Below are positions 4,460 through 39,146 of a DNA stretch of 64,000 bases, one piece after another (the first letter of the stretch is position 1; each line of letters starts with the position of its first letter). The notes under the pieces were generated by a model. The model ran no database searches and had not been told where the DNA came from. It saw only the letters and a list, made by a program, of their open reading frames with translations. Source of the DNA: Bacteroidota bacterium (GTDB lineage: Bacteria; Bacteroidota; Bacteroidia; UKL13-3); contig JBKCPL010000062.1 in NCBI GenBank assembly GCA_046309355.1, forward strand, positions 778 to 64,777, in the 5' to 3' direction. The position numbers and the translations under genes were made by a program.

Positions 4460-4665
4460 ATATTTATTATAATGTGTGAAACAAAATTCGAACTTCATGG
4501 CAAATGTACAAAACGAATTTGCGATGCAGGCACAAACAGGAATAAAAGATTCGTACAATTCTGTCTGAATTCATACCTATGTGAACCTGAAATTGGTAAA
4601 ATACAGTTCGATTAATCAAACATTTGCATATTTTGCAAAAGAAAGTTGACGTAATAACGCACACT

Positions 4666-5673: not shown

Positions 5674-5675
5674 GT

Positions 5676-8671: not shown

Positions 8672-8736
8672 AAGTATATAGGTGCTTGCTGTGTAAACTG
8701 CTGTATGAAAAATGGAACGCTGCAGAACTTTTCTGA

Positions 8737-10038: not shown

Positions 10039-10218
10039 ATCTGTAATATTGGGGGGCGAAATAACATCGAGTATTGCTCACTTTGATGAACAATGAGAGG
10101 CTTTGTGTTAAGTTGACACATTGTTTACAATAGGCCATCCGAACGAATGATTTTTGTCATGTTTTGGGCTATGAGTCGCAAACGATATATTCGGAACTTT
10201 AAAAAATGTGAAAATACC

Positions 10219-12669: not shown

Positions 12670-12677
12670 CTACTCGT

Positions 12678-14285
12678 ATGCTGGCGTGTTTGCTTTTCTT
12701 GGTATACACATTTGCTGTGGCATGGGTAGCCGGCATATGCGCAACCGCTCTCGTTAACCGCCTCACCGGAATAGCTTCAGATACTCAACACCCTAGTGTA
12801 ACCGTATTGTCGGGTTTGTGTTTTATTGCTGTTTTACTACAGGCGTTTCATCTCATTCACGCAATTGACGGTTGGGCACACCTGTATATAGGTATAGTAC
12901 TCGGTGGGGTGTGGTGGTTTACCAAAAAATATCATCCGGAGTCGAAAATTGATTTAGGCATCTCGGGTTATTTGGTGCTGGCAGTTGCCGTTGTGGCGGC
13001 CTGCATCAATGGTATTGCACGAGCCGGCACAGGCGATATTGGCGATTATCACCTTCAGGCTATTCGGTGGATGGAAGAGTATTCAACCGTACCGGGACTT
13101 GGAAACCTACGCAGGCAACTGGGCAATAACTCGAGCTGGTTTTTACTGCATGCGTTTACCGGACTACATTTTACAGGACTACGCTCGGTTTACACTTTAA
13201 ATACCGTACTGCTAATTACGGGTATTGCCTTTTTTATTCCTCAAGCCAACGATAGCTTTTTAAAATTAAAAACTGTCATCCTCATTTACCTGTCGGTGAT
13301 GGCGTACCGCAAATATGTTGGCGCTGTTACAAACGATTATGCCATAACAGTGTACACACTCGTTTTTTGGAGTTGGCTATATATGCAGCATCGTATGAAT
13401 GAGGCTAAGGTGGTGTTTATCGGATTTATAACCTTGACGTTGGTAACGTTTAAACTGTCTGCAGTCGCAGGATTGCTGATACCGCTGTGGCTCTATACTG
13501 CATCTGTGCATAAACAAAAATTAACCCTGCAATTAGCTTTAGTAGCATTGGTGATCTTGATTCCGTGGATATACACCACCTATTTGCATTCGGGGTATTT
13601 TGTGTATCCGGTAGCAGAAACCGGATTTTTGCACCCCGATTGGCAAATGCCTGCCGAGCAGTTGCACTATGAGCGCGCTATAAATATAGCCAACGAGCGT
13701 GTGCCCGGTGTAGATGTTGAAGCTGTACTAGCCATGCCTTTTACTGCCTGGTTTCCGCTGTGGGTGCAAAAACTGGATTATTTCAGTATCATGCTGCTGG
13801 TAGGCGCTATGTGTGCAGGATTGTATTATGCTATTCGATTCATCCAACGCAAAGTCACTTCCGATTTTCATGCATTATTTATATCACTAACAGCTGTTAC
13901 CCTGATTATCTGGTTTACGCAAGCACCCGCCATTCGGTTTGTATTTGGAGCACTGGTGTTTTTTATCGCTTACACCGTTCAATCCATATCATTTTCAGGT
14001 GTGCGCATGCCGAACAGAAAAAGTATACACTATGCATGCGCTGGTATATTACTGGCTGGTGGCTTGGTATTTCTGAAACAGATAAAAACCTATGCGTGGT
14101 TGTATCCGGAGCCATACACCCGGCAAACAATGAACTATGAACCCGTAAAAAACGGATATGTGTGGCAACCGGCAGCAGACCAACAATGCTGGGATTCGCC
14201 TTTACCTTGTACGGGATTGCTGAATAAAAATATGGTATGGCGAAGTGAAAATATGAAAGACGGATTTCGAATTGAAAACGATTAA
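12678..14285 (+). CDS. polytopic membrane protein of unknown function (possible second GT-C-like glycosyltransferase/polymerase)
   Basis: 535 aa, with at least 10 predicted TM helices and an acidic first loop (GTGDIGDYH). It lies 8 bp downstream of yfhO on the same strand. Confidence 0.45.
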   Translation: MLACLLFLVYTFAVAWVAGICATALVNRLTGIASDTQHPSVTVLSGLCFIAVLLQAFHLIHAIDGWAHLYIGIVLGGVWWFTKKYHPESKIDLGISGYLVLAVAVVAACINGIARAGTGDIGDYHLQAIRWMEEYSTVPGLGNLRRQLGNNSSWFLLHAFTGLHFTGLRSVYTLNTVLLITGIAFFIPQANDSFLKLKTVILIYLSVMAYRKYVGAVTNDYAITVYTLVFWSWLYMQHRMNEAKVVFIGFITLTLVTFKLSAVAGLLIPLWLYTASVHKQKLTLQLALVALVILIPWIYTTYLHSGYFVYPVAETGFLHPDWQMPAEQLHYERAINIANERVPGVDVEAVLAMPFTAWFPLWVQKLDYFSIMLLVGAMCAGLYYAIRFIQRKVTSDFHALFISLTAVTLIIWFTQAPAIRFVFGALVFFIAYTVQSISFSGVRMPNRKSIHYACAGILLAGGLVFLKQIKTYAWLYPEPYTRQTMNYEPVKNGYVWQPAADQQCWDSPLPCTGLLNKNMVWRSENMKDGFRIEND

Positions 14286-14318
14286 TGTGTATACTCGCAC
14301 CACTTAATATTCCACAAC

Positions 14319-15257
14319 ATGGCTAAAGACACTATTCTTATCATAGGCGCTAACGGACAAATTGGTATTGAGTTGGCCGAAAACCTGAGGAAGATATATG
14401 GAGATAATCATGTCATTACATCCGACATAAAAGCTATGGACAATCAGCCCGGCATTTTTGAAACGCTGGATATAATGGATAAGAGCAGGCTGTATGAATT
14501 GTTACACACGTATCAGGTTACGCATGTGTACCTGCTGGCCGCATTGTTAAGTGCAACAGCCGAAAAAAATCCAAAACTGGCCTGGGATCTGAATATGGTA
14601 GGTTTATTTCATGTGTTAGACGCAGCGAAAGAAGGCGTTATAAAAAAAATTTACTGGCCCAGTTCAATTGCCGTATTCGGGCCAACCACCCCACGCCAAA
14701 ACACTCCGCAGTATACTGTTATGGAACCCAACACCATATACGGCATCAGTAAACAAACCGGTGAACGGTTTTGCGAATACTATTTTCAAAAGCACGGAGT
14801 AGATGTTCGCAGCATTCGCTATCCAGGGTTAATCGGGTATAAGTCGGCACCGGGCGGAGGCACTACCGATTATGCCGTGCACATTTACCACGAAGCATTA
14901 AAGCACAAATCGTATGAATGTTTTTTAAAAGCCGACACGGCACTGCCCATGATGTATATGCCCGATGCCATTCGAGCCACTATTGAACTGATGGAAGCAC
15001 CGGCCGAAAAAGTAAAAATACGGAGCAGCTACAACCTGGGGGGTATTAGCTTTAATCCGGAACAAATAGCCGCAAGCATTCGTAAACATATTCCGGAGTT
15101 TACCATTACGTATAAACCGGATTTCAGACAAGCCATAGCTGATAGCTGGCCTGCCAGTATTGACGACCATTTGGCAACCGAGCACTGGGGTTGGAATGCT
15201 CAGTATGACCTGGATGGAATGACGGCCGATATGCTACATCATCTGGCAGGGAATTAG
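14319..15257 (+). CDS. tdh: NAD-dependent epimerase/dehydratase family protein, most likely SDR-type L-threonine 3-dehydrogenase
   Basis: It has a Rossmann GANGQIG motif. The blocks AALLSATAEKNP, IYGISKQTGERFCEYY, VRSIRYPGLIGY and SWPASIDD match short-chain-type TDH enzymes as I remember them. No kbl partner is present here, so an epimerase role cannot be excluded. Confidence 0.65.
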   Translation: MAKDTILIIGANGQIGIELAENLRKIYGDNHVITSDIKAMDNQPGIFETLDIMDKSRLYELLHTYQVTHVYLLAALLSATAEKNPKLAWDLNMVGLFHVLDAAKEGVIKKIYWPSSIAVFGPTTPRQNTPQYTVMEPNTIYGISKQTGERFCEYYFQKHGVDVRSIRYPGLIGYKSAPGGGTTDYAVHIYHEALKHKSYECFLKADTALPMMYMPDAIRATIELMEAPAEKVKIRSSYNLGGISFNPEQIAASIRKHIPEFTITYKPDFRQAIADSWPASIDDHLATEHWGWNAQYDLDGMTADMLHHLAGN

Positions 15258-15528: not shown

Positions 15529-18500
15529 ATGAAAACACAAGTACTTACATTTAAAAATCTGCTACTACTCATCGGTGCATTGCTGCTGAATATAGCAACA
15601 CAACGTATACAGGCACAAACTGTGTACTTTGCAGAAAACTTCGACTCTGCCTTCACAGGCACGCCTGCAGCCCCTCCGGGCTGGACACAAACGCGCATAC
15701 AGGCTGTTACCAGCGCAGCAGCGGAATTTGACTGGCTACAAAATGTTTGGCTGGGAACAACTTGGTCAAATTTAGGTACAGGAACAACACCGGCTACCGG
15801 TGCGGTAAACGGAACTGGTGTATTGTGGATAGACGATTATAATTTAGGTGGTACATCTATAGCACAAACTGAAAGACGCTTAGAGTCACCTTCATTTGAC
15901 CTGAGCACATCCACTTCACCTTACATGCGGTTTTGGTATTTCAACAGCGAAGGTAGCGGATTAGCACTCAACCTTCGTGTGGTTATATCTACTAATGGAG
16001 GTACTACTTGGCAAACACTATCAAACGTGCTTAATGGCTATGACAGTGTGACTAGCAGCTGGAATAGAATCAGTATACCTATTCCTGCCAAGTACAGAAC
16101 TACAAATGTAAAAATTGGATTTGCTATCGTAAATAGATGGGGATCTGCTAATCCATTTATTGACGCTGTAAGCGTAGAAGAATTTACCCCTACAATTATC
16201 ACCTCAGCCGCTTCCGGCAATTGGAATAGTGCAGCTACCTGGGGAGGAATAGTTCCGACTTCCAGTCATCACGTGGTTATTCAAAGTACTCACACGGTTA
16301 CTGTAGGCGCGGCTACGGGTATCGTTGCACGGTGTCAGGACTTAACCATCAACACAGGTGGAACACTTAATTACAGCACAACCGCTGCAAACAGCCTTCA
16401 TGTATACGGTAATGTTACTGTTAACGGTACGCTTAGCGCATTAAATGGTACTAGTGGAAGAATTATGGTAGTTGGTGGGAATTTTACCATTGCTACTGGT
16501 GGTGTAGCTACCTTTAATACCGGAGCTGGAACACAAGGCACAACAGCAGTATCTACAGCATTAACCAGTACCTCATCTACATTGGTATTAACAAACTCTG
16601 CACCGGCTTCATTTACCAATTCGGGTACTTTATCTGCCAGTACTAATCGCATTAATAATATAATACATTTAGGCAGTGACACATTTACCTATAACAACAC
16701 TGTGGTAGTACCCTTTACGTTAGCGTTAAGAAATGGCCCTGTAAATCCAAATGGATTTTTAACGATTGGAAATGCCGCATCTGCTACTACATTCAACACT
16801 GTACAACGAGTTAATGGCTTTTTTACAAGTGCACCTAACTTTAGCAATACGAATATTACCTCTCGTATAACAGCTTACCATCTTTCAAACACAGTAAGTG
16901 TTCAGCCTGAGCAGTTAACAGCCGGATTTGAAATTGAGGCTATCGCTGGTGTAAGAACGGTAACCGGCACATTGGTAATGAATACCCACGATAACGTACA
17001 GGTAAATTACCCATTAACCATAGGAACAGCAACTACAGGTGGTTTTACCTTAACCCGTGGTATACTAATCACAACGGATACTATTCGCTTAACTTCCTTT
17101 TTAACACCACCGACAGGCGTTGCACCCTCTACAGCAACACCATCAACTACACATGGCTCATACGTAGTAGGGGCGTTACGTATAGATATGCCTGCATCTA
17201 ACACCACCCGCACATTTGCTATGGGTGCAGGTACACTGTTTAATCAACTTACTCCAAATGGAAACATTCTCAAAAGCAGGTCTATCGCCCCAGGTGCATC
17301 TTGGACTGCAGGTACTTCAATAACCATGCGCTTGTTAACTGGTGCTACAGGTACTGTAAGCACCCCTGTGGTTTCACTACTGGGAAGTAATGTTACACAG
17401 ATTTCATTAAACAACGGTCCGGATGTACCCGGAACTACAACCATTACATTTAACGGAATTAACAATTACACATTGGGTGGAGGTGTTAACAGCGATAACT
17501 TATTTGGCAATGAAGACCAATTGCATCTGGTGCAGTCTCCTAATATTACAGGACCGTGGGCTACAGCATCGGCCGTTTCAGGAACAGCAATTCCTTTTGC
17601 AAACAATACCAACTACAGCAGAACGACCACAGCAACTGTTTCGCCTATTGCTACCAATGGAGGCTTTTTTACACTGGGCACGCAGGTAGGTCCTGTTGCT
17701 TATAACACGACTATATTAAACCGCAATACTGCACCACTTACTCCCGGAACAGCACAACCAAATGTACAGATGATGCGCGTGAATATTACAACAACAGGAG
17801 TAATACCCGGCATTAACGCAACGTCTTTCAGTATGAGTACAAACGGTTCCACAAATCTGAGTAACATTGTCAATGCAAAAGTCTATTTTACGGGAAGCGA
17901 TTCAAACTTTTCAGCCATCAACCAGTTTGGTACTACCTTCACATCTCCTAGTGGCCGATTCATTGTTTCGGGCACACGTCAGTTGTTAGCAGGCAATAAC
18001 TATTTCTGGATTACATATGATGTCCCAGCCACTGCTTCACTTGGCGACAGCCTTACCGTAAGTTGCGATACTATCGTTGTTGCAGGTACTCCATATAGCA
18101 TTACACAGCCTTCTCCGGGCTTCAGGGTATTCTCGCTGCCTATGACGTATGTGTCGTCAACAACAACGCATCCATTTACTAACCCGATTGAGAAGAATAC
18201 AAACTTCCACGTAATTATGCGTGCTGAAGTAGTAACTTCAGCAACAGGTTCTCCCATACCAGTTACTTCATTTGACTTAAACACAGGATCTACATCTAAT
18301 CCATTAACCAATATAGATAGTGTGATAGTATGGTATACCGGTACAAACGGATCATATACAACTCCGGTATTTTTTGGTGGAGCAGGGTCTGTTTCTGGTG
18401 CATTCACAGTATCTGGCTTTCAGAATTTGGCTAATAACTCCAATTATTTCTGGATTACTTACCGCCTCAAACCGGGAGCAAACGTAGGCGACTCGGTAGA

Positions 18501-21500
18501 CGTAGACTTGAACGGTATTATAGTGAGCAGCAGCACACAGGTTCCTTCGGTGACCTCACCTGCCGGCAGCAGAAGAATTAGAGGTGTGTATTGTGCTTCT
18601 GCAGCTACAAACACAGGCGATGAGGAAATATTCAATGTAAGTATTTCTACACTTAATAATTCATCTACATGTACCACGCTGGCACCTGGCCCCGGCTCAA
18701 TCACACAGCGCTATGCAAATTATACTACGCTGCCAGCTACAAATGTAGTAGCAGGACTATCCTATCCGCTTAGCGTGACCATTAACACGTGCGGAGGTTT
18801 TTACGGTGAAAAGTTAAATGCGTACATTGACTGGAATCAGGATGGTGACTTTGCCGATACACTGGAGACTGTAATGGATATAGCTTACGCTACCGGAACA
18901 GCGAATGCTGTTCGCACGCAAAATGTAACTGTTCCATGCTTTGCTATGGCGGGTACAACCATGATGCGCGTTGTTTATGTGGAGGACGTTAGCGCGCCTT
19001 CTTGTGGAACCTATACTTGGGGTGAAACGGAGGATTACACATTAAATGTATTGAATGTCCCTCCAGCATACACAGCATCTACTACCATTCAACAAACAGG
19101 TAGTACTTCAGCGGCTGCAACAAATGTGGCTATTTTACGTGTTCCGGTAAAAGTACTGTCCACTTCATGTCAACCCGGACAAATTACACAGCTCAATTTC
19201 AATACTGCAGGCACCACATCAACAGCTGATATCATAGCCGCGAAATTGTACAAAACAGGAAACAGTGGAGTTTTCAGTGTTTCCAATCTCATAGGTACAG
19301 TAACCGCACCTAGCGGAGCATTTGGTTTTAGTATAACGGATACTACAGTAAATGACACGAACAATTACTGGCTAGCTTACGATGTGTCGGGTACTGCACC
19401 TAACGCAAATGTGCTAGATGCACGATTTGACAGTGCGTTGGTTTTTGGCAACTGGTACACACCAGCCATTTCAGCACCCGCTGGCAATATTGTTATTGCT
19501 ACTCCGATGACATACTTATCATCCACATCATCACATCCAACTCTTTCTAAAATAGAACGTGGTACCACAAATAATCAAATGCTACGGATTCGGGTTATCA
19601 TGTCATCAACAGGTGCACCAGTATCATTAACACAGTTGAACCTGAGTGTTAATGGTTCATCCAATCCAACAACAAATATTGACAGTATCATGGTATGGTA
19701 TACCGGTAGTAATCCTAATTTTACTACGCCTACATTTTATGGAGGTACCGGAGCTCAGTCTGGTGCGTACAGTATTGCGGGTTTGCAAAGTTTGTTAAAT
19801 GACACCAATTACTTCTGGGTAACTTATCGTGTACCCGTAAGTGCGGTGGTAGGGGATTCGGTAGATGCCGAAATACAGACTCTGAATGTAGCAGGTACAC
19901 TGCAAACCCCATCTGTAACTGCACCGGCAGGTGCCCGCTTAATTCGCTCACCGTATTGTGCTGCCGGTGCAACAAGTACATTTGATGGCGAAATATGGAA
20001 TGTAACAGTAGGTTCGTTGAATAATACGTCTACATGTTTAACTACAGGTGGTCCCGGTTCAGTATTGGGAGGTTATTCTGATTACACTGCGGTAATAGCA
20101 CCAGTAAACTTGATTGTGGGAACCCAGGTTCCATTTTCAGTACATACAAGTACGTGCAATGGTAATTATACCGGGGTGTTGGGAATATGGATTGACTTTA
20201 ATGATGACGGAGACTTTACCGATCCGGGAGAGGAAGTACATATGTCACCCACTTTCACTTATGGAGCTACGGTATTCCGTACAGGTAATTTATCAATCCC
20301 TTGTGCTGCACCAGGTATTAAACGTATGAGGGTTACGTTGATGGAAACAACTATTACCCCAATTAGTCCTTGCGGTAGTTATGGCTATGGTGAAACGGAA
20401 GATTACACGGTAAATATTGTTTCGCTTCCACCAAGTTATACTTCGTCAACTACACTACAGCAAACCGGATCAACGTCTGCAGGCGCAACCAATATTCCCA
20501 TATTGAGAGTGCCGCTGAACGTTTTTGCAACAAGTTGCCAACCGGGAGTTATAACTCAGCTCAACTTTAATACTGCAGGTACTACATCTGCAGCGGACAT
20601 TGTAGCTGCCAAACTCTATAAAACAGGAAGTGCTAATACGTTCAGCGCATCCAATCTGGTTGGTACTGTTACATCACCAAGCGGTGCATTCAGTTTTTCA
20701 ATAACCGATACTGCTGTAAACGATTCCAATAACTACTGGCTCACGTATGATGTATCGGGTACAGCACCAAATGGAAATGTACTGGATGCACGTTTTGATA
20801 GTGCTCAGGTATTTGGCAGCTGGTATTTACCCATTGTTTCTAATCCAACAGGTAATGTTCTGGTATCGACTCCGATGGCATTTGTTTCAGCCACATCTAT
20901 TCATCCTACATTATCTAAAATAGAACGTGGAACAGCTAATAATCAGATGTTAAGAGTTCGCGTGATTATGTCATCAACGGGTGCTCCGGTACTGGCTACT
21001 CAACTGAATTTAAGCGTAGCGGGTTCTGCAAATCCGACTACCAATATTGACAGTATCATCGTTTGGTATACCGGATCAAATCCGAGTTTTGTATCCCCTG
21101 TATTCTTTGGTTCTACAGGAACTCAATCGGGTGCGTATACAATAACCGGTACTCGAAACTTACTGAACGACACAAACTATTTCTGGGTAACATACAGAGT
21201 TCCATCGGGAGCCACTGTAGGTGACTCCGTAGATGCAGAAATTGCAGACATTACAGTAGCGGGTATTCCTCAGGTTCCTGGTGTAACTGCACCAGCAGGT
21301 GCACGAACCATTCGTGGTGCGTATTGTCCATCAGTAGCGGGTACTACGGCTGATGGTGAAATCTGGAATGTAACTGTCGGTTCATTAAATAATTCCTCGA
21401 CTTGTACAACCACAGGTGGAACTGGTTCAACACTAAATTCATATTCGAATTACACAACTACAATAGCGGCTCCCCAATTCGCTGCGGGTGCTTATATACC

Positions 21501-23175
21501 TTTCTCTGTGAATACGAGTACATGTGGTGGCGATTACCCTGGAGTACTTGGTATTTGGATTGACTTTAACGATGATGGCGACTTTACCGATGCCGGTGAA
21601 GAGGTACATATGACACCAGTGTTTACTTATGGAACTGCTGTATTCCGTACTGGAGATATTGTTATCCCTTTAACAGCTAGTCCTGGATTGAAAAGAATGC
21701 GTGTAACACTGATTGAAACCGGTACAAGTCCGATAACTCCATGTCAGACTTATTTCTATGGTGAAACGGAAGACTATACGGTTGAAATTATGCCGGCACC
21801 TGCTCCAACTACTTATGTATGGAATCAGACCACTCCGGGATCATTTAGTACAGCAACGAACTGGACTCCGGGTCGTGTTGCACCAAATTTGAATGACCGT
21901 CTCATTTTCAGTGGTGGTGGTTCTGCAACAGTAAATGATTTAGTTAACCATAGTGTAAAGAATATTACGATTTCGAACAACACAACCGTGAATATGAATG
22001 CATCGGTAACTGCAACATTTAATGCCTGGGATACATTGGCACTTACTTCAGGTAAAGCCGTTACTGGTTTGAATGTAAATTTATCAATGGGCAGTAGAAA
22101 CGGTGTGGGTACACTAACCGGGTCAGGAACAGTTGAAGGGACCTTTACCCGCTGGGCTGACTTAGGATTGAGTACCTATTCCTTCCCATTGTCTCACACT
22201 AACCTTAGCAGAAATGTGGATATAACATTTAATGGCGCGCCTGCAACCACAGGAACAATTACAGCTACATTTGTGCCCGGTTTGCCCGGTACTACCGGTT
22301 TACCATTCAACGATGGATTGATTAACGTGAACAGAGTGGCCGAAAATGGATACTGGAATTTAACCAGTGGTAATGGATTAACATTCGGAACTGCTACTAA
22401 TTATAACCTGGCACTAACAGCCAACGGATTTAATGGTGTAGTAACCTTGGCTACATTAACGGTAGCCAGAAGGGTTAACAATACCAGCCCATGGGATACA
22501 GCAGGTACTTATGCAGCAGCTACCGGTACCAATGCCACACCTGTGGCTAATCGCTCTAACCTGCGCGTACTTGGCGATTTCACATTGGGTGGAGATTCCG
22601 CTACCAATCCGCTTCCAGTAAATTTGGTAAATCTTCAGGCCAGTTCAATAGGCGAAGATGTATTGGTAACTTGGACAACTGCCAGCGAATTAAACAATAA
22701 GGGCTTCATTGTTGAAAAATCAATGAATGGCGTTGACTTCGAAAGTATCGGATTTGTAAACGGAAAGGGTACAACAAATATTCAGGTAAACTATCAGTTG
22801 TTGGATGAAAAAGCCTTCGCAGTTGTTAATACAGTATACTACAGACTGCGTCAGGTTGATATGGATGGAACAGAACATCTGAGTAACATTGTACGTGCAA
22901 CCAAAACCGAACGCAGTATTGCTTCGACTACAGTAGCGCCTAATCCTTTCAATGGAATCACTCATCTGAATATTGTATCTGCTGAACAAGGAGAATACAC
23001 CATAACAATTTCCGACATTCAAGGTAAAACCATAGGTACTCGAGTGGTAAATGCCATAAAAGGCCTGAACACTATCAGCCTGACTGAAATGCAGCAGGCA
23101 GGTGCAGGAGTTTACTTCATACGAGTTTTAGGTACTGAAAGTACTACCATTAAAGTGGTAAAATCTGCTGAATAA
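15529..23175 (+). CDS. giant T9SS-secreted surface protein with repeated beta-sandwich modules and 3 GEVED-type domains
   Basis: 2548 aa with a signal peptide. It has three YC...WIDFNDDGDFTD...GETEDYT domains at about 18586-19050, 19954-20420 and 21313-21790, and repeated ...NYFWxTY... modules. The C-terminal T9SS CTD occupies 22933-23172 (GVYFIRVLGTESTTIKVVKSAE). Confidence 0.85.
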   Translation: MKTQVLTFKNLLLLIGALLLNIATQRIQAQTVYFAENFDSAFTGTPAAPPGWTQTRIQAVTSAAAEFDWLQNVWLGTTWSNLGTGTTPATGAVNGTGVLWIDDYNLGGTSIAQTERRLESPSFDLSTSTSPYMRFWYFNSEGSGLALNLRVVISTNGGTTWQTLSNVLNGYDSVTSSWNRISIPIPAKYRTTNVKIGFAIVNRWGSANPFIDAVSVEEFTPTIITSAASGNWNSAATWGGIVPTSSHHVVIQSTHTVTVGAATGIVARCQDLTINTGGTLNYSTTAANSLHVYGNVTVNGTLSALNGTSGRIMVVGGNFTIATGGVATFNTGAGTQGTTAVSTALTSTSSTLVLTNSAPASFTNSGTLSASTNRINNIIHLGSDTFTYNNTVVVPFTLALRNGPVNPNGFLTIGNAASATTFNTVQRVNGFFTSAPNFSNTNITSRITAYHLSNTVSVQPEQLTAGFEIEAIAGVRTVTGTLVMNTHDNVQVNYPLTIGTATTGGFTLTRGILITTDTIRLTSFLTPPTGVAPSTATPSTTHGSYVVGALRIDMPASNTTRTFAMGAGTLFNQLTPNGNILKSRSIAPGASWTAGTSITMRLLTGATGTVSTPVVSLLGSNVTQISLNNGPDVPGTTTITFNGINNYTLGGGVNSDNLFGNEDQLHLVQSPNITGPWATASAVSGTAIPFANNTNYSRTTTATVSPIATNGGFFTLGTQVGPVAYNTTILNRNTAPLTPGTAQPNVQMMRVNITTTGVIPGINATSFSMSTNGSTNLSNIVNAKVYFTGSDSNFSAINQFGTTFTSPSGRFIVSGTRQLLAGNNYFWITYDVPATASLGDSLTVSCDTIVVAGTPYSITQPSPGFRVFSLPMTYVSSTTTHPFTNPIEKNTNFHVIMRAEVVTSATGSPIPVTSFDLNTGSTSNPLTNIDSVIVWYTGTNGSYTTPVFFGGAGSVSGAFTVSGFQNLANNSNYFWITYRLKPGANVGDSVDVDLNGIIVSSSTQVPSVTSPAGSRRIRGVYCASAATNTGDEEIFNVSISTLNNSSTCTTLAPGPGSITQRYANYTTLPATNVVAGLSYPLSVTINTCGGFYGEKLNAYIDWNQDGDFADTLETVMDIAYATGTANAVRTQNVTVPCFAMAGTTMMRVVYVEDVSAPSCGTYTWGETEDYTLNVLNVPPAYTASTTIQQTGSTSAAATNVAILRVPVKVLSTSCQPGQITQLNFNTAGTTSTADIIAAKLYKTGNSGVFSVSNLIGTVTAPSGAFGFSITDTTVNDTNNYWLAYDVSGTAPNANVLDARFDSALVFGNWYTPAISAPAGNIVIATPMTYLSSTSSHPTLSKIERGTTNNQMLRIRVIMSSTGAPVSLTQLNLSVNGSSNPTTNIDSIMVWYTGSNPNFTTPTFYGGTGAQSGAYSIAGLQSLLNDTNYFWVTYRVPVSAVVGDSVDAEIQTLNVAGTLQTPSVTAPAGARLIRSPYCAAGATSTFDGEIWNVTVGSLNNTSTCLTTGGPGSVLGGYSDYTAVIAPVNLIVGTQVPFSVHTSTCNGNYTGVLGIWIDFNDDGDFTDPGEEVHMSPTFTYGATVFRTGNLSIPCAAPGIKRMRVTLMETTITPISPCGSYGYGETEDYTVNIVSLPPSYTSSTTLQQTGSTSAGATNIPILRVPLNVFATSCQPGVITQLNFNTAGTTSAADIVAAKLYKTGSANTFSASNLVGTVTSPSGAFSFSITDTAVNDSNNYWLTYDVSGTAPNGNVLDARFDSAQVFGSWYLPIVSNPTGNVLVSTPMAFVSATSIHPTLSKIERGTANNQMLRVRVIMSSTGAPVLATQLNLSVAGSANPTTNIDSIIVWYTGSNPSFVSPVFFGSTGTQSGAYTITGTRNLLNDTNYFWVTYRVPSGATVGDSVDAEIADITVAGIPQVPGVTAPAGARTIRGAYCPSVAGTTADGEIWNVTVGSLNNSSTCTTTGGTGSTLNSYSNYTTTIAAPQFAAGAYIPFSVNTSTCGGDYPGVLGIWIDFNDDGDFTDAGEEVHMTPVFTYGTAVFRTGDIVIPLTASPGLKRMRVTLIETGTSPITPCQTYFYGETEDYTVEIMPAPAPTTYVWNQTTPGSFSTATNWTPGRVAPNLNDRLIFSGGGSATVNDLVNHSVKNITISNNTTVNMNASVTATFNAWDTLALTSGKAVTGLNVNLSMGSRNGVGTLTGSGTVEGTFTRWADLGLSTYSFPLSHTNLSRNVDITFNGAPATTGTITATFVPGLPGTTGLPFNDGLINVNRVAENGYWNLTSGNGLTFGTATNYNLALTANGFNGVVTLATLTVARRVNNTSPWDTAGTYAAATGTNATPVANRSNLRVLGDFTLGGDSATNPLPVNLVNLQASSIGEDVLVTWTTASELNNKGFIVEKSMNGVDFESIGFVNGKGTTNIQVNYQLLDEKAFAVVNTVYYRLRQVDMDGTEHLSNIVRATKTERSIASTTVAPNPFNGITHLNIVSAEQGEYTITISDIQGKTIGTRVVNAIKGLNTISLTEMQQAGAGVYFIRVLGTESTTIKVVKSAE

Positions 23176-23202
23176 TAGGTAGGAGGTATTTTATACCCAC
23201 CG

Positions 23203-23240
23203 AAAAGAAGGCCGGCTTAAAAAGCCGGCCTTCTTTTTTA
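23203..23240 (+). terminator. intrinsic terminator between the two giant paralogs
   Basis: GAAGGCCGGCTTAAAAAGCCGGCCTTC (an 11-bp GC-rich stem) followed by TTTTTT. Confidence 0.75.
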
Positions 23241-23314
23241 TACATTCCCGTGATATTTGCACAGCATATTTTAAGGACTTTTAGTTATTTTAGCCGCTTG
23301 TTTAGCAACGGTTT

Positions 23315-26300
23315 ATGCACCCTTTTACATTTGTCAAATACATGAACACCGGAATAAAAATTCTTTTTACAGTTATCTTATTATCGTTCGGATTAAAACC
23401 TGTAGAAGCACAGGTATACCTAGCCGAAAGTTTTGAGAATGCATTCACTGGCAATCCTGCTGCGCCTGCAGGTTGGAGTCAATCACGAATACGCCCTGTT
23501 GTTACATCGGCCGAAAGAGACTGGGTACGTAATACTTTTAGTGTAGGGGCGTGGGCAATTACTGGTGGAACCTTGCCACCAAGTCCCGGAGCATTTCATG
23601 GAAACTCAGTATTGTTTTTACAAGATATCGGATTCGGTGGTGCAGCTTCACCGCTAACAGAACGTAGAATTTCATCGCCCGCTATGAATCTTAGTACAGC
23701 CACATCTCCATACGTGCGTTTCTACCTGTTCTACCCTCAGGATCCTTGTTTGAATATAAACCTTCGCGTGGTTATTTCACCTGATAACGGAACTACATGG
23801 CATACGTTATCCAATATTATGAGTGGCTTAAACACAACCACTTCTCCCAACCAATGGGCAAAAATCAATGTTCCTATACCTGCAAGATATCGTACAACAC
23901 AAACGCGTGTAGGTTTTGCCACAGTTAACCGAAACGGAGCAAATAATATTTTTATTGACTCTGTATCCGTTTTAGAATACACCCCTACAACCATTACTAG
24001 TGCTGCCAGCGGCAACTGGAATTTGCCTGCAAACTGGGTTGGTGGAGTTGTGCCTACATCTGATCATAATGTAGTTATTAGCAGCGGTCATACCATTACT
24101 GTAACTGTTGGACTGGCTAGTGGGGGTGTGCGTTGTCAGAATTTAACAATTAACTCCGGGGGTACGTTAACATACGGTGCAAACGGCAGTCAGCTGCTTC
24201 AGGTATTTGGCGATGTTACAGTATCAGGAACGTTATCTGCATTAAATGCTACCAACGGACGTATTTTGTATGTAGGTAAAAACTTTACTATCAATACAGG
24301 AGGTGTTGCAACTTTTAATACAGGTAATTCAACATTGGGAACATCTGCACCATTAGCTAACTTGCCGTTGAACACCTCGGGTATCGTATTTTGTAATAGT
24401 GATTCGGCAACATTCACCAACGCAGGAACATTAGCAGGTAGTCGGGTAAACAACATCTGGCATTTGGGGTCGAATGATGCGGTATTCCGCTATAATGATT
24501 CGGTTAGTGTACCCTTAACATTTACTTTGATAAACGGAAGAGTTGATGCAAATAGCAGACTAACGCTAGGTAACGCTGCTGTTGCTAATACAGTAAATTA
24601 TGTGTGGCGCACTAATGGTAGTTTTACATCAGCACCGGTATTTAATAATACAAACATAAACATACGCTGGATGCTATATCTGTCGGTATTTCAAAGTACT
24701 GTAACCCCTACCACACTCATAGCTGGTGAAGAACATCGAAATAATTCAGGGCGGGTAATTGAAGGTTATCTGACTATGAATACCCATAACAATGTAGAGT
24801 TGCAATACCCACTTTCATTTAGTGCTTTACATACTCCGTTTCTTCAACTGCAGCGTGGGATCTTACTAACCAGTCAGGCAAATCCGCTTATATTTTCTAG
24901 CAATTATGCAGGCACCACGGCATTGGCACCTAGTACAATTAATCCTAACCCCACCAATCATGGATCGTATGTAGTGGGCAGTATTCAAATAAACAGACCA
25001 ACAACAGGAAATCTTCAGGTATCGTTGCCATTTGGTATTGGATCAGCATTTAACGGGATTGCACCTAATGGTAATCAAGCACGTACCATAACTATTAATC
25101 CCGGTACTAACTGGAATGGAGAATCATTCTTATGCACATATAGTTCGGGCAATGCTACAAGCCGCAACGTAACAGGCAACCTAACAACTACAATGAGTAA
25201 CAAAATGTTGCGGATACAACCCTTGAATGGTGACTTACCCACAAACACTGTAGTATCCCTGACTGCCATCAATTATCCATTTGGCAACAGCGATAGTTTA
25301 GTGGGCCAACAAGGTCAGATGTTTGTGGTGCAGGGTAACTCCCCAAATGGTCCTTGGGTGCAGCGTTCATCTACGAATGGATTGGTATCGCCCTTTGTAA
25401 GCAATACGTTATACACATTGAATACGGCAGCAACCAGTCCCGGACCCATATCTCCCCTTTCATCCAATGGTCAGTACTTTCGATTTGCCACCTCAGCACC
25501 TGTAATGCAATATACAAGCAGTTCGGCTCAGCGGGTTACAGGAAATGTATCTGTCGGTACGGCTAATATGCCTATGCTTCGAATACGTGTTGACATTTCC
25601 GGAATTGTACCCATCAATATCACAGGACTAAATCTTTCAACTGCCGGAACATCAAATACAGCTGCTATTGCAAATGTTAAAGTGTTTTACACGGGTACAG
25701 ATTCTACATTCAACACACTTTTACCATTTGGAAATCCCGTTGCAACTCCTTCGGGAGCATTTACTGTAAGTGGTAATAGTCAGTTACGCACCGGTGCCAA
25801 CTTTTTTTGGATTGCATACGATGTGGCAACTGGTGCTGCACAGGGCGATAGTCTTATTGTGCAGTGCAGCAGCGTTATAGTGGCCGATACCGCCCGAACA
25901 GTAACTATGCCGAATGCTTCTTTTCGAATAGTAGGTACATCCATGGCGTTTATTTCAGCTAATGCATTTCAAACTGTAACTTCAAAGGTATTTACCGGAT
26001 CATTCAACAATGAGATTCTGCGGTTAGAGGTACTTATGTCGGATACAGGTGCGCCTGTACCCATCACACAAATGCAATTCAGAACATTAGGCTCAGCCAA
26101 TCCTCTTACAAATATTACCACCGCAACAGTGTATTACACCGGTGGCAGTGCCGTGTTCTCTCCCAATATACCTTTAGGTAATTTTAGTTCCCCTAACGAT
26201 ACGTTTATTGTAAGCGGTCAGTTAAATTTGCGTAACGGGATGAATTATTTCTGGCTTGCGTACGATATAAGTAGCACTGCCAGCATTACTGACTCAGTTG

Positions 26301-29300
26301 ACGGAGTCTTCATATCCCTAGGCGTTAATGGAAATAACATCGCACCCATATCAACAACACCAGCCGGAAACCGTAAAATCAAAGCCCAATATTGTCTGCC
26401 TACTTATACGCTCGGATGTGCCAGTGATTTCATTTCTCGTGTCCGATTAGAAACTATTGATAATATTACAACCTGTAATTCGCAAGGTTTTTATACCTAC
26501 TTTTCAAGTATTACACCTCCTACATTACTAGCCGGAAGAACATACACACTCAAATTAAATTTTAACAGTGAACCCAATCAGTTTGCACGAGCATGGGCTG
26601 ACTGGAATGAAGATGGAGACTTTGTGGATTCAGGAGAAGACTTGGGTATTCAGACTCCTGCGAATGCAGGAACGGGTGGTATGGCTTCTATTACCTTCAC
26701 TGTACCTTGTACCGCAACAAATTCTGTTACACGTTTGCGAATTCGTGGGGGCGATGATGCTCAACCGCAGGCTAATCAATCCTGCGGAGCATCATCCAAT
26801 GCCTATGGCGAAGGTGAAGACTATGACATAAATGTAGTTAGCGGAAACAGAGAGCATCTTGGTAATACTGCACTTCAACAAACAGGTGGAGCACCGGCCT
26901 CTACATTAAATACAGCCATCCTGCGTGTACCTGTAAAAGTAAAAGTAACAAACTGCAACCCGGGTGTAATCAATGAATTTCGATTCCGCACCACTGGAAC
27001 AACCAATACAGCAGATATCCTAAATGCTAAACTTTACAAAACAGGTTCGTCACCTGTATTCTCTGTTGCAAATCTTTTAGGCACTGTTGCTAGCCCATCA
27101 GGTGTATTTAGTTTTGTAGTTAACGACTCAGCTGTAAACGACACCAATAACTATTGGTTAACGTATGACATTGCCTCGACAGCACCTAACGGCAATTTAC
27201 TGGACGCAGTACTCGACAGTGTACGTGTTTTTAACAGCTGGTTCATACCGGCAAATGGTAATCCATCCGGATCAAGGACTGTGGCTACGCCTATGTCATT
27301 TATAGGTGCAAGTGCTGTGCATCCTACACCTGATAGAGTGGAGAGGGGAAGCGCAAACAATCCGATGCTTCGCATGATGGTAAGAACAACAAGCTTTGGT
27401 GCACCGATTAATGCCACTCAATTTACCCTAAGCACAGCAGGCTCACAAAATACATTTTTCAATCTCGATAGTATAATAGTTTGGTATACCGGAAGCAACG
27501 CTGAATTCGAAAATCCGGTATTATTCGGAGGCGTAGGAATGCAAACAGGTACATTTACAGTGAGTGGTATTCAAAGCTTGAATAATGATACAAATTACTT
27601 TTGGGTTACCTATAACATTCCTCCTTTTGCCAGTATAGGCGATACAATGGATGCGGAGTTTATCAATGTTACGATAGGTGGTACTTTGCAAACAACTTCT
27701 TCCGGAAACCCTGCAGGTTTTCGAATCATTCGTGCAGCCTATTGTGCTGCAGAAGCAGCCGGAGGAACAGATGCTGAAATTGTAGGCACATACATAGGGC
27801 CATTATCCAACGCATCGAACTGCTCTACGACCGGTGGGCCAGGATCTATTCAAAATTCGTACAGCAATTTCACTCAAATACTACCCGCTACTACTTTCAT
27901 CATGGGCAAAACATATCCTTTTTCCATAAATACTTCTACATGTAACGGCAGTTTTGATGCGGTGTTGGGAATTTGGGTTGACCTGAATCAGGACGGTGAT
28001 TTTAACGATGCCGGAGAAGAACTTCATATGTCACCAGTGTTTGCATACGGGGCTAATGTTATTCGTACCGGTACCATTACCATACCGTGCACTGCATTAA
28101 GCGGACGAACCCGGCTGCGAGTAATCATGAATGAAACATCCAGTGGGCCTATATCTGCGTGCGGTAGTTATACCTTCGGTGAAACGGAGGACTATTTGAT
28201 TAATTTGGTTAATGTGCCTACGAGTTACATAAGTAGTACCGTATTTCAGCAAAGCGGTTCGGCACCGTTTGGTGGTGTAGATGTGCCCGTACTTCGGGTA
28301 CCTGTAGTAGCAAACGCCAATTCATGTCAGCCGGGCACAATCACCCGATTATTCTTTACTACCGCTGGAACTACAACTACTTCTGATATTCTGAGTGCAA
28401 AACTTTATAAAACAGGAAGCAGCGCTACATTTAATACCAACACATTGCTAGGAACAGTAACATCACCCTCCGGATTATTCAGCTTTTTGTTAACTGACAC
28501 TGTACTTGACGACACCAATAATTACTGGCTTGCATACGATGTGTCTCTAACAGCAACCGGAAGCAATCTACTGGATGCAACATGCGACAGCATACTTGCA
28601 TTCGGCTCGCGTTTCATTCCGGCTGTTACCAATCCTGCTGGTGCGCTTTCTGTAACTGCGCCTATGACGTTTGTTGATGCTAATGCCTTACATCCAACCC
28701 TGCAGGTTATAAACAGCCCGTCAGCCAATAACCAAATGTTACGAATTATGATTCGTATGTCGGCCACTGGTGCGCCTGTTCCTGTTTCTCAATTTAACTT
28801 GAGCACCAACGGTTCTCAAAATCCGCTTGTAAATGCCGATAGCATTATTGTTTGGTACACCGGTTCTGGTTCAGCATTCACCTCTCCTGTATTTTTTGGG
28901 GGTGTTGGTCCTCGAAGCGGTAATTTCTCTATTACTGGATTACAGCCGCTGTTGAATGATACAAACTATTTTTGGATAACATACCGAGTACCACAAACTG
29001 CTATAATTGGCGATTCACTGGATGCAGAGTTAATTAATATAGTCGTTAATGGTGTAATCAGAACACCAATTAACGGAGCTCCTGCCGGAAAACGAAGAAT
29101 TAAAAACAGCTATTGTATTCCGGTTATTACTACCGGGTGCGGATTTGATATACTTGATTTGGTTACCACTACCGGTGCTACTACCAATCTAACGAATTCT
29201 TCCACCGGTTGTAACGGCAATCCAAATTCCTATCAGTTTAATACCTCGCAAACTCTCGTCATTACACAAGGTGCAACATTTACCATAAACCTGCGAGCCG

Positions 29301-30928
29301 ATGGCGATATGGAAGGTTTGGCAGCATGGATTGATTACAATGATGACGGTGACTTTGACGATCCTGATGAATTCATCGCCACCTTTGCTCCCAGTATGGG
29401 TGTAGTGAATTCATCGCCTGTTACAGTACCGCTGCAAACGATTACAGGCATAACACTGCGTATGCGTGTTCGCGCTATCTTTAACACACTCATTGGTGCT
29501 TCACAATCGTGCACGGCAGTGCAGTGGGGTGAAACGGAAGATTTTCAGGTACAAATTTTACCTGCACCTACACCTACCACGTATGTTTGGAATCAAACAA
29601 CACCGGCTAACTTCAATACAGCTTCAAACTGGACACCGGCCAGAGCAGCTACTAATTTAAACGACCGACTTGTATTTAACTCGGGTGGTGTAGTAACAGT
29701 AAACACATTGCCCACGCAGCGTGTAGCAAGTCTCGAACTGCTTAATGGAACAACGCTGCAGTTGCAATCAACGTCACAAAACACATTGACTGCAACCGAT
29801 TCACTATACTTAACTTCGGGTAAAGTTGTTACAGATGCGAACACCAATATGTGCATCGGACGCAGAAATTTTGCCGGTGTACTAACCGGATCTGGATATG
29901 TGAACGGTATTTTAGTAAGATGGATAACAGGTACAGGCACCTACACGTTCCCGATTTATGACATGGATACTAACCGTCAGGTTACTGTGATCGTAACAGC
30001 AGCACCTACCGAGCCAGGCACTTTGGCCGCTCGTTTTGTTCGCGGACAACCGTCAACCAACGGGTTGCCATTAACAGATGGCAGTATTCTGGTGAATCGT
30101 GTGGCACAAAACGGTGTATGGCGCTTAACATCCGGGAATAATCTTGGATCGTTACAATATAATCTGACCGTTCGTGCAGATTCGTTTGCCGGTGTATACA
30201 ATGTTGCCGGTTTAAGTCTGTTGCGTAGAGACAATAATACTGCGGCATGGACAGTGAGCGGAAACTATGTAGCTGCTACCGGCAGTAGGTATACGCCACT
30301 GGTTAGTCGTACCAATCTTTCTAGTCTTGGTGAATTTACCTTGGGCAGCGATACTGCAATGAATCCGCTACCGGTTGAGTGGCTTAAATTTACAGGACAC
30401 GTTTCGCACACGCATGCGGTATTGCGATGGGCTACCGCTACCGAAAAAAATAACAGCCACTTTATTGTTCAACGTTCGGCAGATGCAGTAAACTTTACCA
30501 CCATAGGATACGTGAAAGGAAAAGGAAATTCGGTATCCGTGACTGATTATGAATATACGGATGACCAGGTTTTCACGCAAACACCATCTGCATACTACCG
30601 ACTGATACAAGAAGACCTAGACGGCACACAATCGTTTAGCAGAATTATTTATTTGACGGCCACACCACAAAACGAGCTATTACAGGTTATTCCCAATCCA
30701 TTCAACAAAGCACCTGATATGGTATTTAGCAGTGCAACGAATGAAACAGTTGCCGTGTTGATTACCGACATCAGCGGACGAACACTCGCCACACAAACTG
30801 TGTATGTGCAGGAAGGAATAAACCGCATACAAGTATCATCTGTAAGCACACTGCCCGCAGGCATTTATTTCATATCACTGAGTGGAGTTGAAAGCAGAAC
30901 CTGCAGGGTTATCAAACTTCACGATTAA
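23315..30928 (+). CDS. giant T9SS-secreted surface protein, tandem paralog of the upstream gene
   Basis: 2537 aa with the same architecture. The N-terminal domain aligns with gene A (VYLAESFENAFTGNPAAPAGWSQ... against VYFAENFDSAFTGTPAAPPGWTQ...). It has three GEVED-type domains at about 26391-26840, 27738-28215 and 29110-29560, and the CTD at 30686-30925. Confidence 0.85.
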   Translation: MHPFTFVKYMNTGIKILFTVILLSFGLKPVEAQVYLAESFENAFTGNPAAPAGWSQSRIRPVVTSAERDWVRNTFSVGAWAITGGTLPPSPGAFHGNSVLFLQDIGFGGAASPLTERRISSPAMNLSTATSPYVRFYLFYPQDPCLNINLRVVISPDNGTTWHTLSNIMSGLNTTTSPNQWAKINVPIPARYRTTQTRVGFATVNRNGANNIFIDSVSVLEYTPTTITSAASGNWNLPANWVGGVVPTSDHNVVISSGHTITVTVGLASGGVRCQNLTINSGGTLTYGANGSQLLQVFGDVTVSGTLSALNATNGRILYVGKNFTINTGGVATFNTGNSTLGTSAPLANLPLNTSGIVFCNSDSATFTNAGTLAGSRVNNIWHLGSNDAVFRYNDSVSVPLTFTLINGRVDANSRLTLGNAAVANTVNYVWRTNGSFTSAPVFNNTNINIRWMLYLSVFQSTVTPTTLIAGEEHRNNSGRVIEGYLTMNTHNNVELQYPLSFSALHTPFLQLQRGILLTSQANPLIFSSNYAGTTALAPSTINPNPTNHGSYVVGSIQINRPTTGNLQVSLPFGIGSAFNGIAPNGNQARTITINPGTNWNGESFLCTYSSGNATSRNVTGNLTTTMSNKMLRIQPLNGDLPTNTVVSLTAINYPFGNSDSLVGQQGQMFVVQGNSPNGPWVQRSSTNGLVSPFVSNTLYTLNTAATSPGPISPLSSNGQYFRFATSAPVMQYTSSSAQRVTGNVSVGTANMPMLRIRVDISGIVPINITGLNLSTAGTSNTAAIANVKVFYTGTDSTFNTLLPFGNPVATPSGAFTVSGNSQLRTGANFFWIAYDVATGAAQGDSLIVQCSSVIVADTARTVTMPNASFRIVGTSMAFISANAFQTVTSKVFTGSFNNEILRLEVLMSDTGAPVPITQMQFRTLGSANPLTNITTATVYYTGGSAVFSPNIPLGNFSSPNDTFIVSGQLNLRNGMNYFWLAYDISSTASITDSVDGVFISLGVNGNNIAPISTTPAGNRKIKAQYCLPTYTLGCASDFISRVRLETIDNITTCNSQGFYTYFSSITPPTLLAGRTYTLKLNFNSEPNQFARAWADWNEDGDFVDSGEDLGIQTPANAGTGGMASITFTVPCTATNSVTRLRIRGGDDAQPQANQSCGASSNAYGEGEDYDINVVSGNREHLGNTALQQTGGAPASTLNTAILRVPVKVKVTNCNPGVINEFRFRTTGTTNTADILNAKLYKTGSSPVFSVANLLGTVASPSGVFSFVVNDSAVNDTNNYWLTYDIASTAPNGNLLDAVLDSVRVFNSWFIPANGNPSGSRTVATPMSFIGASAVHPTPDRVERGSANNPMLRMMVRTTSFGAPINATQFTLSTAGSQNTFFNLDSIIVWYTGSNAEFENPVLFGGVGMQTGTFTVSGIQSLNNDTNYFWVTYNIPPFASIGDTMDAEFINVTIGGTLQTTSSGNPAGFRIIRAAYCAAEAAGGTDAEIVGTYIGPLSNASNCSTTGGPGSIQNSYSNFTQILPATTFIMGKTYPFSINTSTCNGSFDAVLGIWVDLNQDGDFNDAGEELHMSPVFAYGANVIRTGTITIPCTALSGRTRLRVIMNETSSGPISACGSYTFGETEDYLINLVNVPTSYISSTVFQQSGSAPFGGVDVPVLRVPVVANANSCQPGTITRLFFTTAGTTTTSDILSAKLYKTGSSATFNTNTLLGTVTSPSGLFSFLLTDTVLDDTNNYWLAYDVSLTATGSNLLDATCDSILAFGSRFIPAVTNPAGALSVTAPMTFVDANALHPTLQVINSPSANNQMLRIMIRMSATGAPVPVSQFNLSTNGSQNPLVNADSIIVWYTGSGSAFTSPVFFGGVGPRSGNFSITGLQPLLNDTNYFWITYRVPQTAIIGDSLDAELINIVVNGVIRTPINGAPAGKRRIKNSYCIPVITTGCGFDILDLVTTTGATTNLTNSSTGCNGNPNSYQFNTSQTLVITQGATFTINLRADGDMEGLAAWIDYNDDGDFDDPDEFIATFAPSMGVVNSSPVTVPLQTITGITLRMRVRAIFNTLIGASQSCTAVQWGETEDFQVQILPAPTPTTYVWNQTTPANFNTASNWTPARAATNLNDRLVFNSGGVVTVNTLPTQRVASLELLNGTTLQLQSTSQNTLTATDSLYLTSGKVVTDANTNMCIGRRNFAGVLTGSGYVNGILVRWITGTGTYTFPIYDMDTNRQVTVIVTAAPTEPGTLAARFVRGQPSTNGLPLTDGSILVNRVAQNGVWRLTSGNNLGSLQYNLTVRADSFAGVYNVAGLSLLRRDNNTAAWTVSGNYVAATGSRYTPLVSRTNLSSLGEFTLGSDTAMNPLPVEWLKFTGHVSHTHAVLRWATATEKNNSHFIVQRSADAVNFTTIGYVKGKGNSVSVTDYEYTDDQVFTQTPSAYYRLIQEDLDGTQSFSRIIYLTATPQNELLQVIPNPFNKAPDMVFSSATNETVAVLITDISGRTLATQTVYVQEGINRIQVSSVSTLPAGIYFISLSGVESRTCRVIKLHD

Positions 30929-30948: not shown

Positions 30949-30980
30949 AAAGGAGGTCCAGTAATTGACCTCCTTTTTTT
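30949..30980 (+). terminator. intrinsic terminator after giant gene B
   Basis: AAAGGAGGTCCAGTAATTGACCTCCTTTTTTT. Confidence 0.7.
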
Positions 30981-31027
30981 ATGCCTGCTGGGTATTACAT
31001 TTGAATCCGAATAATTGTGTAAAGTAT

Positions 31028-38997: not shown

Positions 38998-39064
38998 TCC
39001 TCTAATTTTTTTTGCGGGCAGTTTTGCACAATTAGTCGAAAACCATACATTTGCACCCCTAACT

Positions 39065-39135
39065 GACCGATGGTGTAACTGGCAACACGTCTGATTTTGG
39101 TTCAGAAGAGTCTAGGTTCGACCCCTAGTCGGTCA
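39065..39135 (+). tRNA. tRNA-Gln (anticodon TTG)
   Basis: 71 nt, folded by hand. Acceptor GACCGAT pairs with GTCGGTC, the D-stem GTGT with ACAC, and the anticodon stem TCTGA with TCAGA around loop TTTTGGT (anticodon TTG). The T-arm is CTAGG-TTCGACC-CCTAG, the discriminator is A, and CCA is not encoded. Confidence 0.8.
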
Positions 39136-39146
39136 ACAAAAGCCCT

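Follow-up and report, generated by a model that had tools for sequence, protein, structure and literature searches.

A tandem pair of giant type A T9SS cargo proteins in a Bacteroidota genome, with a CBM93-CBM93-GEVED triplet super-repeat and a possible role in glycan-binding adhesion

Two adjacent genes of 7.6 kb each, here designated A (15529..23175) and B (23315..30928), lie in a 64,000-nucleotide stretch of contig JBKCPL010000062.1 from a Bacteroidota bacterium (GenBank assembly GCA_046309355.1). This whole stretch, the window, was the subject of our analysis, and its coordinates refer to the forward (+) strand unless the minus strand is indicated. The locus raises the question of what such giant, repetitive proteins are built from and what they may do. 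A preliminary description had seen in them paralogous type IX secretion system (T9SS) cargo, adhesins or gliding-motility proteins of an expanding family to which no function could be assigned. The reading that we favor, with a probability of roughly 0.6, is that A and B would be PorV-dependent, type A T9SS cargo that serves as long, multivalent, glycan-binding fibrillar adhesins.

Both genes are uninterrupted open reading frames (ORFs) and, as described before, adjacent paralogs. Gene A encodes a protein of 2548 aa (267 kDa, pI 5.2) and gene B a protein of 2537 aa (270 kDa, pI 5.8); together they occupy 23.8% of the window, in agreement with the earlier estimate of about 24%. They are identical to database proteins P0001 and P0010, respectively, whose source is an ENA metagenome contig. 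The two proteins could be aligned collinearly from end to end, with 45.6% identity across 2559 columns. A single misassembled gene, raised earlier as a possible explanation of the pair, was excluded because DNA repeats between or within A and B reach a maximum of ~73% nucleotide identity (the two copies share ~72% at most) and because ~20 contigs of other samples, each assembled on its own, show the two genes in the same arrangement. Recent gene conversion between repeats of the window was also rejected, since no DNA repeat exceeds this identity.

Windowed self-comparison and hidden Markov models (HMMs) built on A's own segments yielded a domain grammar common to both proteins: a signal peptide, an N domain, an H region, three copies of an a-b-G triplet, an X region, a module preceding the C-terminal domain (pre-CTD) and the C-terminal sorting domain (CTD). 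In B, these elements occupy residues 1-32 (signal peptide), 33-225 (N), 226-732 (H), 733-1176, 1182-1632 and 1638-2082 (triplets), 2083-2385 (X) and 2386-2537 (pre-CTD and CTD). The N-terminal strings and the LRV, KLYKTGS and NYFW.TYDV motifs quoted in the preliminary description are present in the translations; two regions of A, residues 223-723 (~500 aa) and 2089-2395 (~307 aa), had been overlooked.

The central element is the triplet, a unit of ~456 aa with the order CBM93a-CBM93b-G that occurs three times per protein. In A, triplet 1 (17698..19053) consists of a1 (residues 724-870), b1 (871-1019) and G1 (1020-1175); triplet 2 (19069..20421) of a2 (1181-1325), b2 (1326-1474) and G2 (1475-1631); and triplet 3 (20437..21792) of a3 (1637-1781), b3 (1782-1930) and G3 (1931-2088). 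Triplets 2 and 3 of A are 66-78% identical in the self-comparison. The corresponding triplets 1-3 of B span 25511..29560. The a and b modules, six per protein and the commonest repeat in A and B, belong to BNR_assoc_N (PF14873), which is carbohydrate-binding module (CBM) family 93 in CAZy (PMC9472817). With a gathering score of 25 bits, this model was passed by a1 (43.4 bits), b1 (37.2) and b2 (42.5) of A, with a2 at 16.4 bits under the cut-off and a3 and b3 left out of the individual Pfam scans. In B, the six modules scored 42.6, 40.9, 18.8, 36.5, 18.4 and 30.2 bits, and thus a1, b1, b2 and b3 lie above the cut-off. In fold, the modules are open-cleft beta-sandwiches like the N-terminal domain of the sialidases. 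The earlier view that A and B are built from GEVED-type domains does not hold, as GEVED accounts for three of ~14 domains and CBM93 dominates.

The GEVED matches themselves were found as predicted. PF20009 (cut-off 24.4 bits) was detected in three stretches of each protein at 59.6-74.7 bits per stretch (64.7 and 61.2 bits in triplets 1 and 2 of A; 59.6, 74.7 and 62.4 bits in B) and at 170 (A) and 155.5 bits (B) for the whole proteins. The Pfam model spans just the final 78 residues of a G domain of ~155 aa; the residues upstream of each GEVED segment are part of the same jelly-roll, which is itself preceded by CBM93. The G domain carries a DxNxDGD acidic loop and a GE(T/V)ED strand. Several details quoted for these features apply to only some of the copies. 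All three G domains of A end in GETEDY, as was claimed for both proteins, whereas those of B end, in order, in GEGEDY, GETEDY and GETEDF. The YC...N.S.C cysteine framework occurs in four of the six G domains (G1-G3 of A and G2 of B), with YC.P..T.GC in its place in G1 and G3 of B, and the exact loop string WIDFNDDGDFTD is limited to G2 and G3 of A, the remaining four loops being variants.

When used as a single sequence against PDB, protein A gave no match and its G3 domain chance matches only; the profile of 31 triplets alone succeeded. It matched sialidase CBM93 domains (4q6k, E = 1.8e-8), and its positions 315-454 matched residues 719-877 of Endo HS-alpha (9x1i, E = 3.5e-6). The values tabulated under the G domain were 15.1 for Endo HS-alpha (9x1i), 14.5 for the P. 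gingivalis sialidase (8gn6, 151 residues aligned), and 9.0 and 7.8 for the Wzt O-antigen-binding domains 5hno and 6o14, and the G jelly-roll resembles both domain IV of Endo HS-alpha and these Wzt domains. The matched segment of Endo HS-alpha is its domain IV, a jelly-roll similar to the Wzt carbohydrate-binding domains for which N-glycan recognition was proposed (PMC12961652). Previous studies also showed that the CBM93 domains of NanH and PG0352 bind sialoglycans and glycoproteins (PMC9472817). At least 10 of the domains have carbohydrate-binding-module-type folds, and for this reason the statement that no function is assignable was too pessimistic. The G domains fall into subtypes, in the order A, A, A in protein A; C, A, F in B and its ortholog P0012; and B, B, A in P0003, a 61% relative. 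Because their G subtypes differ, A and B probably recognize different ligands.

The N-terminal part of the proteins forms a second building block. In A, the N domain (15616..16194, residues 30-222) is a choice-of-anchor J domain with a MAM-like jelly-roll, and the H region (16195..17697, residues 223-723) is a right-handed beta-helix plus a beta-sandwich; in the predicted structure, N and the ~500-aa H region pack together as a single rigid head. A choice-of-anchor match had been anticipated and was found, with NF038128 of NCBIfam scoring 34.7 (A) and 36.7 bits (B) at a cut-off of 30. The MAM model PF00629, also proposed, narrowly failed (25.2 versus 26.4 bits), and the fold of the N domain resembles MAM, reelin, CBM4 and the gingipain Kgp K1 domain. 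At least 17 other architectures, among them Kelch, Fn3, SprB-repeat and MBG arrays, carry this head at 40-55% identity, and it is the best-conserved part of the protein: A and P0003 are ~85% identical in the first 800 residues, compared with 32-70% in the remainder and ~32% in the G segments. To judge from these alignments, N-H is a mobile head cassette of ~700 aa.

The beta-helix also bears on a different explanation, namely that A and B are secreted polysaccharide depolymerases in which this helix would be an unrecognized lyase or hydrolase (tailspike, polysaccharide lyase (PL) or GH28-like) and the nine CBM-type modules would target the substrate. Domains of the CBM93 and G types are attached elsewhere to glycosidases (GH33 sialidases and the GH85 enzyme Endo HS-alpha), and CBM arrays are typical of carbohydrate-active enzymes (CAZymes). 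However, no catalytic family (glycoside hydrolase (GH), PL or carbohydrate esterase) was detected in Pfam and NCBIfam scans of A and B at any threshold used, and the closest matches of the H beta-helix were adhesin binding regions and an autotransporter passenger rather than PL or GH28 enzymes. The genes are flanked by housekeeping genes, and the locus contains no SusC/SusD pair and no other CAZymes, so that neither a CAZyme nor a polysaccharide utilization locus is indicated. The presence of the head on Kelch, Fn3, SprB-repeat and MBG arrays also gives it the look of an adhesive tip. We consider a depolymerase unlikely.

Between the triplets and the sorting signal lies the X region (A, 21793..22713, residues 2089-2395, ~307 aa; B, 29561-30469, residues 2083-2385). 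It has 44 invariant columns among 11 family members, and no relative was found in Pfam, NCBIfam or PDB, including by profile search. A weak similarity to the C-terminal part of H was reported by hhalign (probability 56%, E = 1.1e-4). By sequence, X is thus a conserved region with no database family.

With regard to export, A and B have the features expected of type A T9SS cargo, as the preliminary description had proposed. The signal peptide of A (15529..15615, residues 1-29), read off the translation, has a predicted cleavage site between IQA and Q that would leave an N-terminal Gln; in B, cleavage is predicted between VEA and Q, and the n-, h- and c-regions are legible in both translations. 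At the other end, the pre-CTD module and type A sorting domain of A (22714..23172; residues 2396-2468 and 2469-2548) and the sorting domain of B (30686..30925) were recognized by TIGR04183 at 35.5 and 25.8 bits, respectively (cut-off 23). The Por_Secre_tail model PF18962 (cut-off 27), proposed as a further check, supported A (29-32 bits) and left B below threshold (24.4 bits). Type A CTDs are directed to the PorV shuttle, and the CTD determines whether the cargo is anchored or released (PMC12618676). Five ORFs of the window bear a CTD, which indirectly supports the presence of T9SS machinery in the host. The D[ST][AILVMT] motif, of the Bacteroidota O-glycosylation type, has 19 occurrences in A and 18 in B (~9 +/- 3 after shuffling); the excess is partly due to conserved motifs such as DSVDA, and the sites are candidate glycosylation sites.

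As very large, repetitive T9SS cargo, A and B might alternatively be gliding-motility adhesins moved along the cell surface like SprB and RemA of Flavobacterium johnsoniae, and RemA, an adhesin of motility that bears a lectin domain, indeed has a type A CTD (PMC12618676). However, neither the SprB repeat (PF13573) nor the type B CTD (TIGR04131) was found in Pfam and NCBIfam scans of A and B, the genes downstream are B and FTCD rather than a porP/sprF-like gene, and no gliding genes were found in the 64-kb window. We regard this role as quite improbable. Thus, of the earlier suggestion of adhesins or gliding proteins, the adhesin part agrees with the head-stalk-anchor layout of a fibrillar adhesin, and the SprB-type gliding part does not agree with the scans.

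To place the pair in a wider context, relatives were collected. The full architecture is common to ~20 clusters with 3, 4, 5 or 7 triplets, as detected with the HMMs from A, and a Flavobacteriaceae metagenome-assembled genome encodes 12 triplets within one ORF of 6060 aa, so that members have from 3 up to at least 12 triplets. When 1.84 billion representatives were searched exhaustively with a profile, 5,094 proteins were returned at E <= 1e-30. The entire triplet was matched in ~70 of the best 150; the others have b-G or a-b units or G-only arrays. The domain grammar covers at least ~70 clusters at 50% identity. Named members are annotated only as "hypothetical", "GEVED domain-containing" or "T9SS type A sorting domain-containing", and no paper describing the architecture was found in the literature on GEVED, PF14873 and choice-of-anchor J, nor was a description of the N-H cassette found. 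Among the 79 loci retrieved, no cultured relative has triplets, and the named isolates have G arrays only.

The comparison of synteny proposed earlier showed that the pair is conserved in two other genomes (75-84% identity). A close relative has the same tandem pair (A' 84% and B' 81.5% identical) between the same flanks, with YfhO-like, DUF8201 and epimerase genes on the 5' side and FTCD and a CARDB/LamG cargo gene on the 3' side. In a third genome, an A-type C-terminus (75%) is followed by a B ortholog (80.7%) and the same downstream genes. The copy number is different in P0003, which is single-copy and lies in an unrelated gene context. Orthologs gave a ratio of nonsynonymous to synonymous substitutions (dN/dS, Nei-Gojobori) of 0.064-0.068 overall and 0.03-0.22 by domain, values that are approximate because dS is saturated. 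The duplication that produced A and B is old, because the proteins are only 45.6% identical and dS is saturated even between orthologs; the tandem pair is old and stable, and not a recent expansion. Diversifying selection was rejected for every domain on the basis of the above ratios. The proposal of an expanding, antigenically diversifying family was therefore not supported. Functional diversification through the G subtypes is plausible, although it is not accompanied by rapid sequence change. Purifying selection is strong in all domains, which indicates that every module is functional.

P0003 contains an internal tandem duplicate of 1.34 kb with 90.7% nucleotide identity (G1-a2-b2 versus G2-a3-b3; locus L083, 13001-15700, gene nucleotides 3001-5700), and at the protein level its G1 and G2 seem to be identical. 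This duplicate, together with the different G-subtype patterns of otherwise similar proteins, suggests exchange of G cassettes and internal duplication over long timescales. It is conceivable, if rather doubtful, that the triplet is a new composite glycan-recognition unit in which G cassettes swapped by recombination re-program the specificity while the CBM93 pair and the head remain fixed; A and B might then form a two-specificity set for attachment of uncultured freshwater Bacteroidota to distinct polysaccharide particles or phototroph surfaces. In another lineage (locus L085, 17981-26293), the gene that follows family member P0014 in tandem encodes an unrelated CTD protein of 2770 aa, whose similarity to A is limited to the C-terminal ~280 residues and a short stretch resembling the head. 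This adjacency indicates that giant T9SS cargo genes cluster even if they are not paralogs.

Our preferred reading of A and B as glycan-binding fibrillar adhesins combines these elements in the following way. The protein would be exported by Sec, and cleavage by signal peptidase I would leave an N-terminal Gln. The T9SS would then carry it through the outer membrane, guided by the C-terminal Ig-like sorting domain; after removal of this domain, the mature protein of ~255 kDa would be attached to the surface or released. From the cell outwards, the order would be the pre-CTD module, X, the three triplets and, most distally, the rigid beta-helix/choice-of-anchor J head. The head, and probably the nine lectin-type stalk modules too, could bind a polysaccharide or glycoconjugate at high avidity; the candidate ligands are particles, exopolymers from algae or cyanobacteria, and other cells. 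A distal binding region, a repeated stalk of variable number (3, 4, 5, 7 and 12 triplets) and an anchor signal at the opposite end, in this order, are typical of fibrillar adhesins.

Several observations weigh against this proposal. No T9SS machinery genes were found within the 64-kb window, and a type A CTD alone does not predict anchoring versus release (PMC12618676). A a2, B a2 and B a3 scored only 16-19 bits for PF14873, below the cut-off; in the self-comparison, however, this a2/a3 subtype is clearly homologous to a1. The literature gives no residue-level definition of the CBM93 binding site. The beta-helix fold is used by polysaccharide depolymerases too. In addition, GEVED was counted as a stalk domain by Barringer et al. 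(PMC10952558), and it could be that CBM93 and G serve only as structural spacers. In that case, A and B would form an inert surface coat or spacer, with CBM93 and G as a rigid stalk or shield and any binding confined to the head, or none. The wide variation in triplet number among relatives, as in stalk length, and the superior conservation of the head between A and P0003 fit such a role, as does the stalk classification. It is harder to reconcile a pure spacer with the swapping of G subtypes as cassettes between otherwise similar proteins, and the G domains are among the most constrained between orthologs (dN/dS 0.03-0.08); moreover, solved or characterized relatives of both CBM93 and G were implicated in glycan binding. 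An inert coat thus seems to us an improbable function.

Regarding expression, the claim that each gene has its own strong terminator was borne out. A is followed by an intrinsic terminator (23202..23243) with a perfect stem (23202-23238) of 16 bp by repeat finder or 17 bp by RNA fold, a 3-nt loop and a T-run (-27.8 kcal/mol, z = -7.5). The terminator of B (30949..30982) has a 10-bp stem (30949-30976), an 8-nt loop and a T-run (-15 kcal/mol, z = -4.6). For the FTCD ORF, the start listed is a TTG at 30965 that overlaps this hairpin; its true start is probably ~21 codons downstream, because the orthologs have 564 aa compared with 585 aa here. Upstream of A and B, only matches with one deviation from the TAnnTTTG motif were found, and a sigma-70 promoter scan is uninformative for Bacteroidota.

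Directly 5' of A lies a trio of genes (10147-15257) for a YfhO-like membrane protein, an LIC_10190/DUF8201 membrane protein and an NAD-dependent epimerase, whose position is kept in L080, L081 and L082. This trio may be glycan-related; any link to A and B would be hypothetical. Two genes 3' of B is a third T9SS cargo gene (32786-36439, 1217 aa) with CARDB, Laminin_G_3 and a type A CTD, kept in position in L080 and L084. Elsewhere in the window, 58369-63894 (minus strand) encodes a T9SS cargo protein of 1840 aa that carries a type A CTD and no fewer than four IPT/TIG domains. Genes for an HmuY-like protein, for a TonB-dependent receptor and for a CTD protein of 432 aa (ORF 8737-10038) stand in a row at 5676-10038 (minus strand); this row resembles a cluster for haem uptake that includes a partner secreted by the T9SS. 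The window also contains a tRNA gene (39064-39136), its sole Rfam match, and a gene for a Fic/DOC family protein (648-1616).

In environmental Bacteroidota, giant T9SS cargo accounts for a large part of the surface proteome, in most cases with no assigned function. The building blocks of A and B and the kind of protein, a giant adhesin-like T9SS cargo, are already known and ordinary for the phylum, and current beliefs about T9SS cargo are not overturned; the family itself is sizeable and uncharacterized. Three descriptions are new, those of the triplet as a super-repeat, of N-H as a mobile head cassette and of the unassigned X domain, and two proteins annotated as hypothetical or GEVED domain-containing now have a defined domain grammar. 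If glycan binding is true, such a multivalent lectin scaffold would bear on attachment to particles and on the turnover of carbon in freshwater.

Comparison with known systems shows partial similarity in each case. The lectin domain of RemA is of the SUEL type, a family other than those of the A and B modules. RemA shares with A and B the large size, the type A CTD and lectin-type domains, and it is surface-exposed and partly released (PMC12618676); however, no sequence relationship between them was detected, and no motility role is indicated for A and B. The Pfam GEVED domain was defined in the CshA fibrillar adhesins of Streptococcus, which likewise combine a binding region at the N-terminus with a repetitive stalk and an anchor signal at the C-terminus (PMC10952558). 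In contrast to A and B, the anchor of CshA is LPXTG instead of a T9SS CTD, and its GEVED domain occurs once beside the binding domain rather than inside a repeated triplet; the NR2 ligand-binding domain of CshA was not detected in A and B by Pfam. Choice-of-anchor J/MAM-like domains (NF038128, including the cleaved adhesin fold of gingipain K1) are shared by the N domain, which in A and B is part of a fixed ~700-aa cassette with the beta-helix region.

The closest relatives of the stalk modules are found in enzymes. The a and b modules belong to the same family as the CBM93 domains (PF14873) of the GH33 sialidases NanH of T. forsythia, BTSA of B. thetaiotaomicron and PG0352 of P. gingivalis. 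A and B differ from these in having six copies in tandem pairs, an a2/a3 subtype below the Pfam threshold and no sialidase or other catalytic domain; their host is environmental, probably freshwater, and sialoglycans do not suggest themselves as a ligand there. Domain IV of Endo HS-alpha, the only solved example of a full G domain and now linked to it, occurs once, as an accessory domain, in a GH85 enzyme, whereas A and B each have three G copies, of several subtypes, every one of them following two CBM93 modules.

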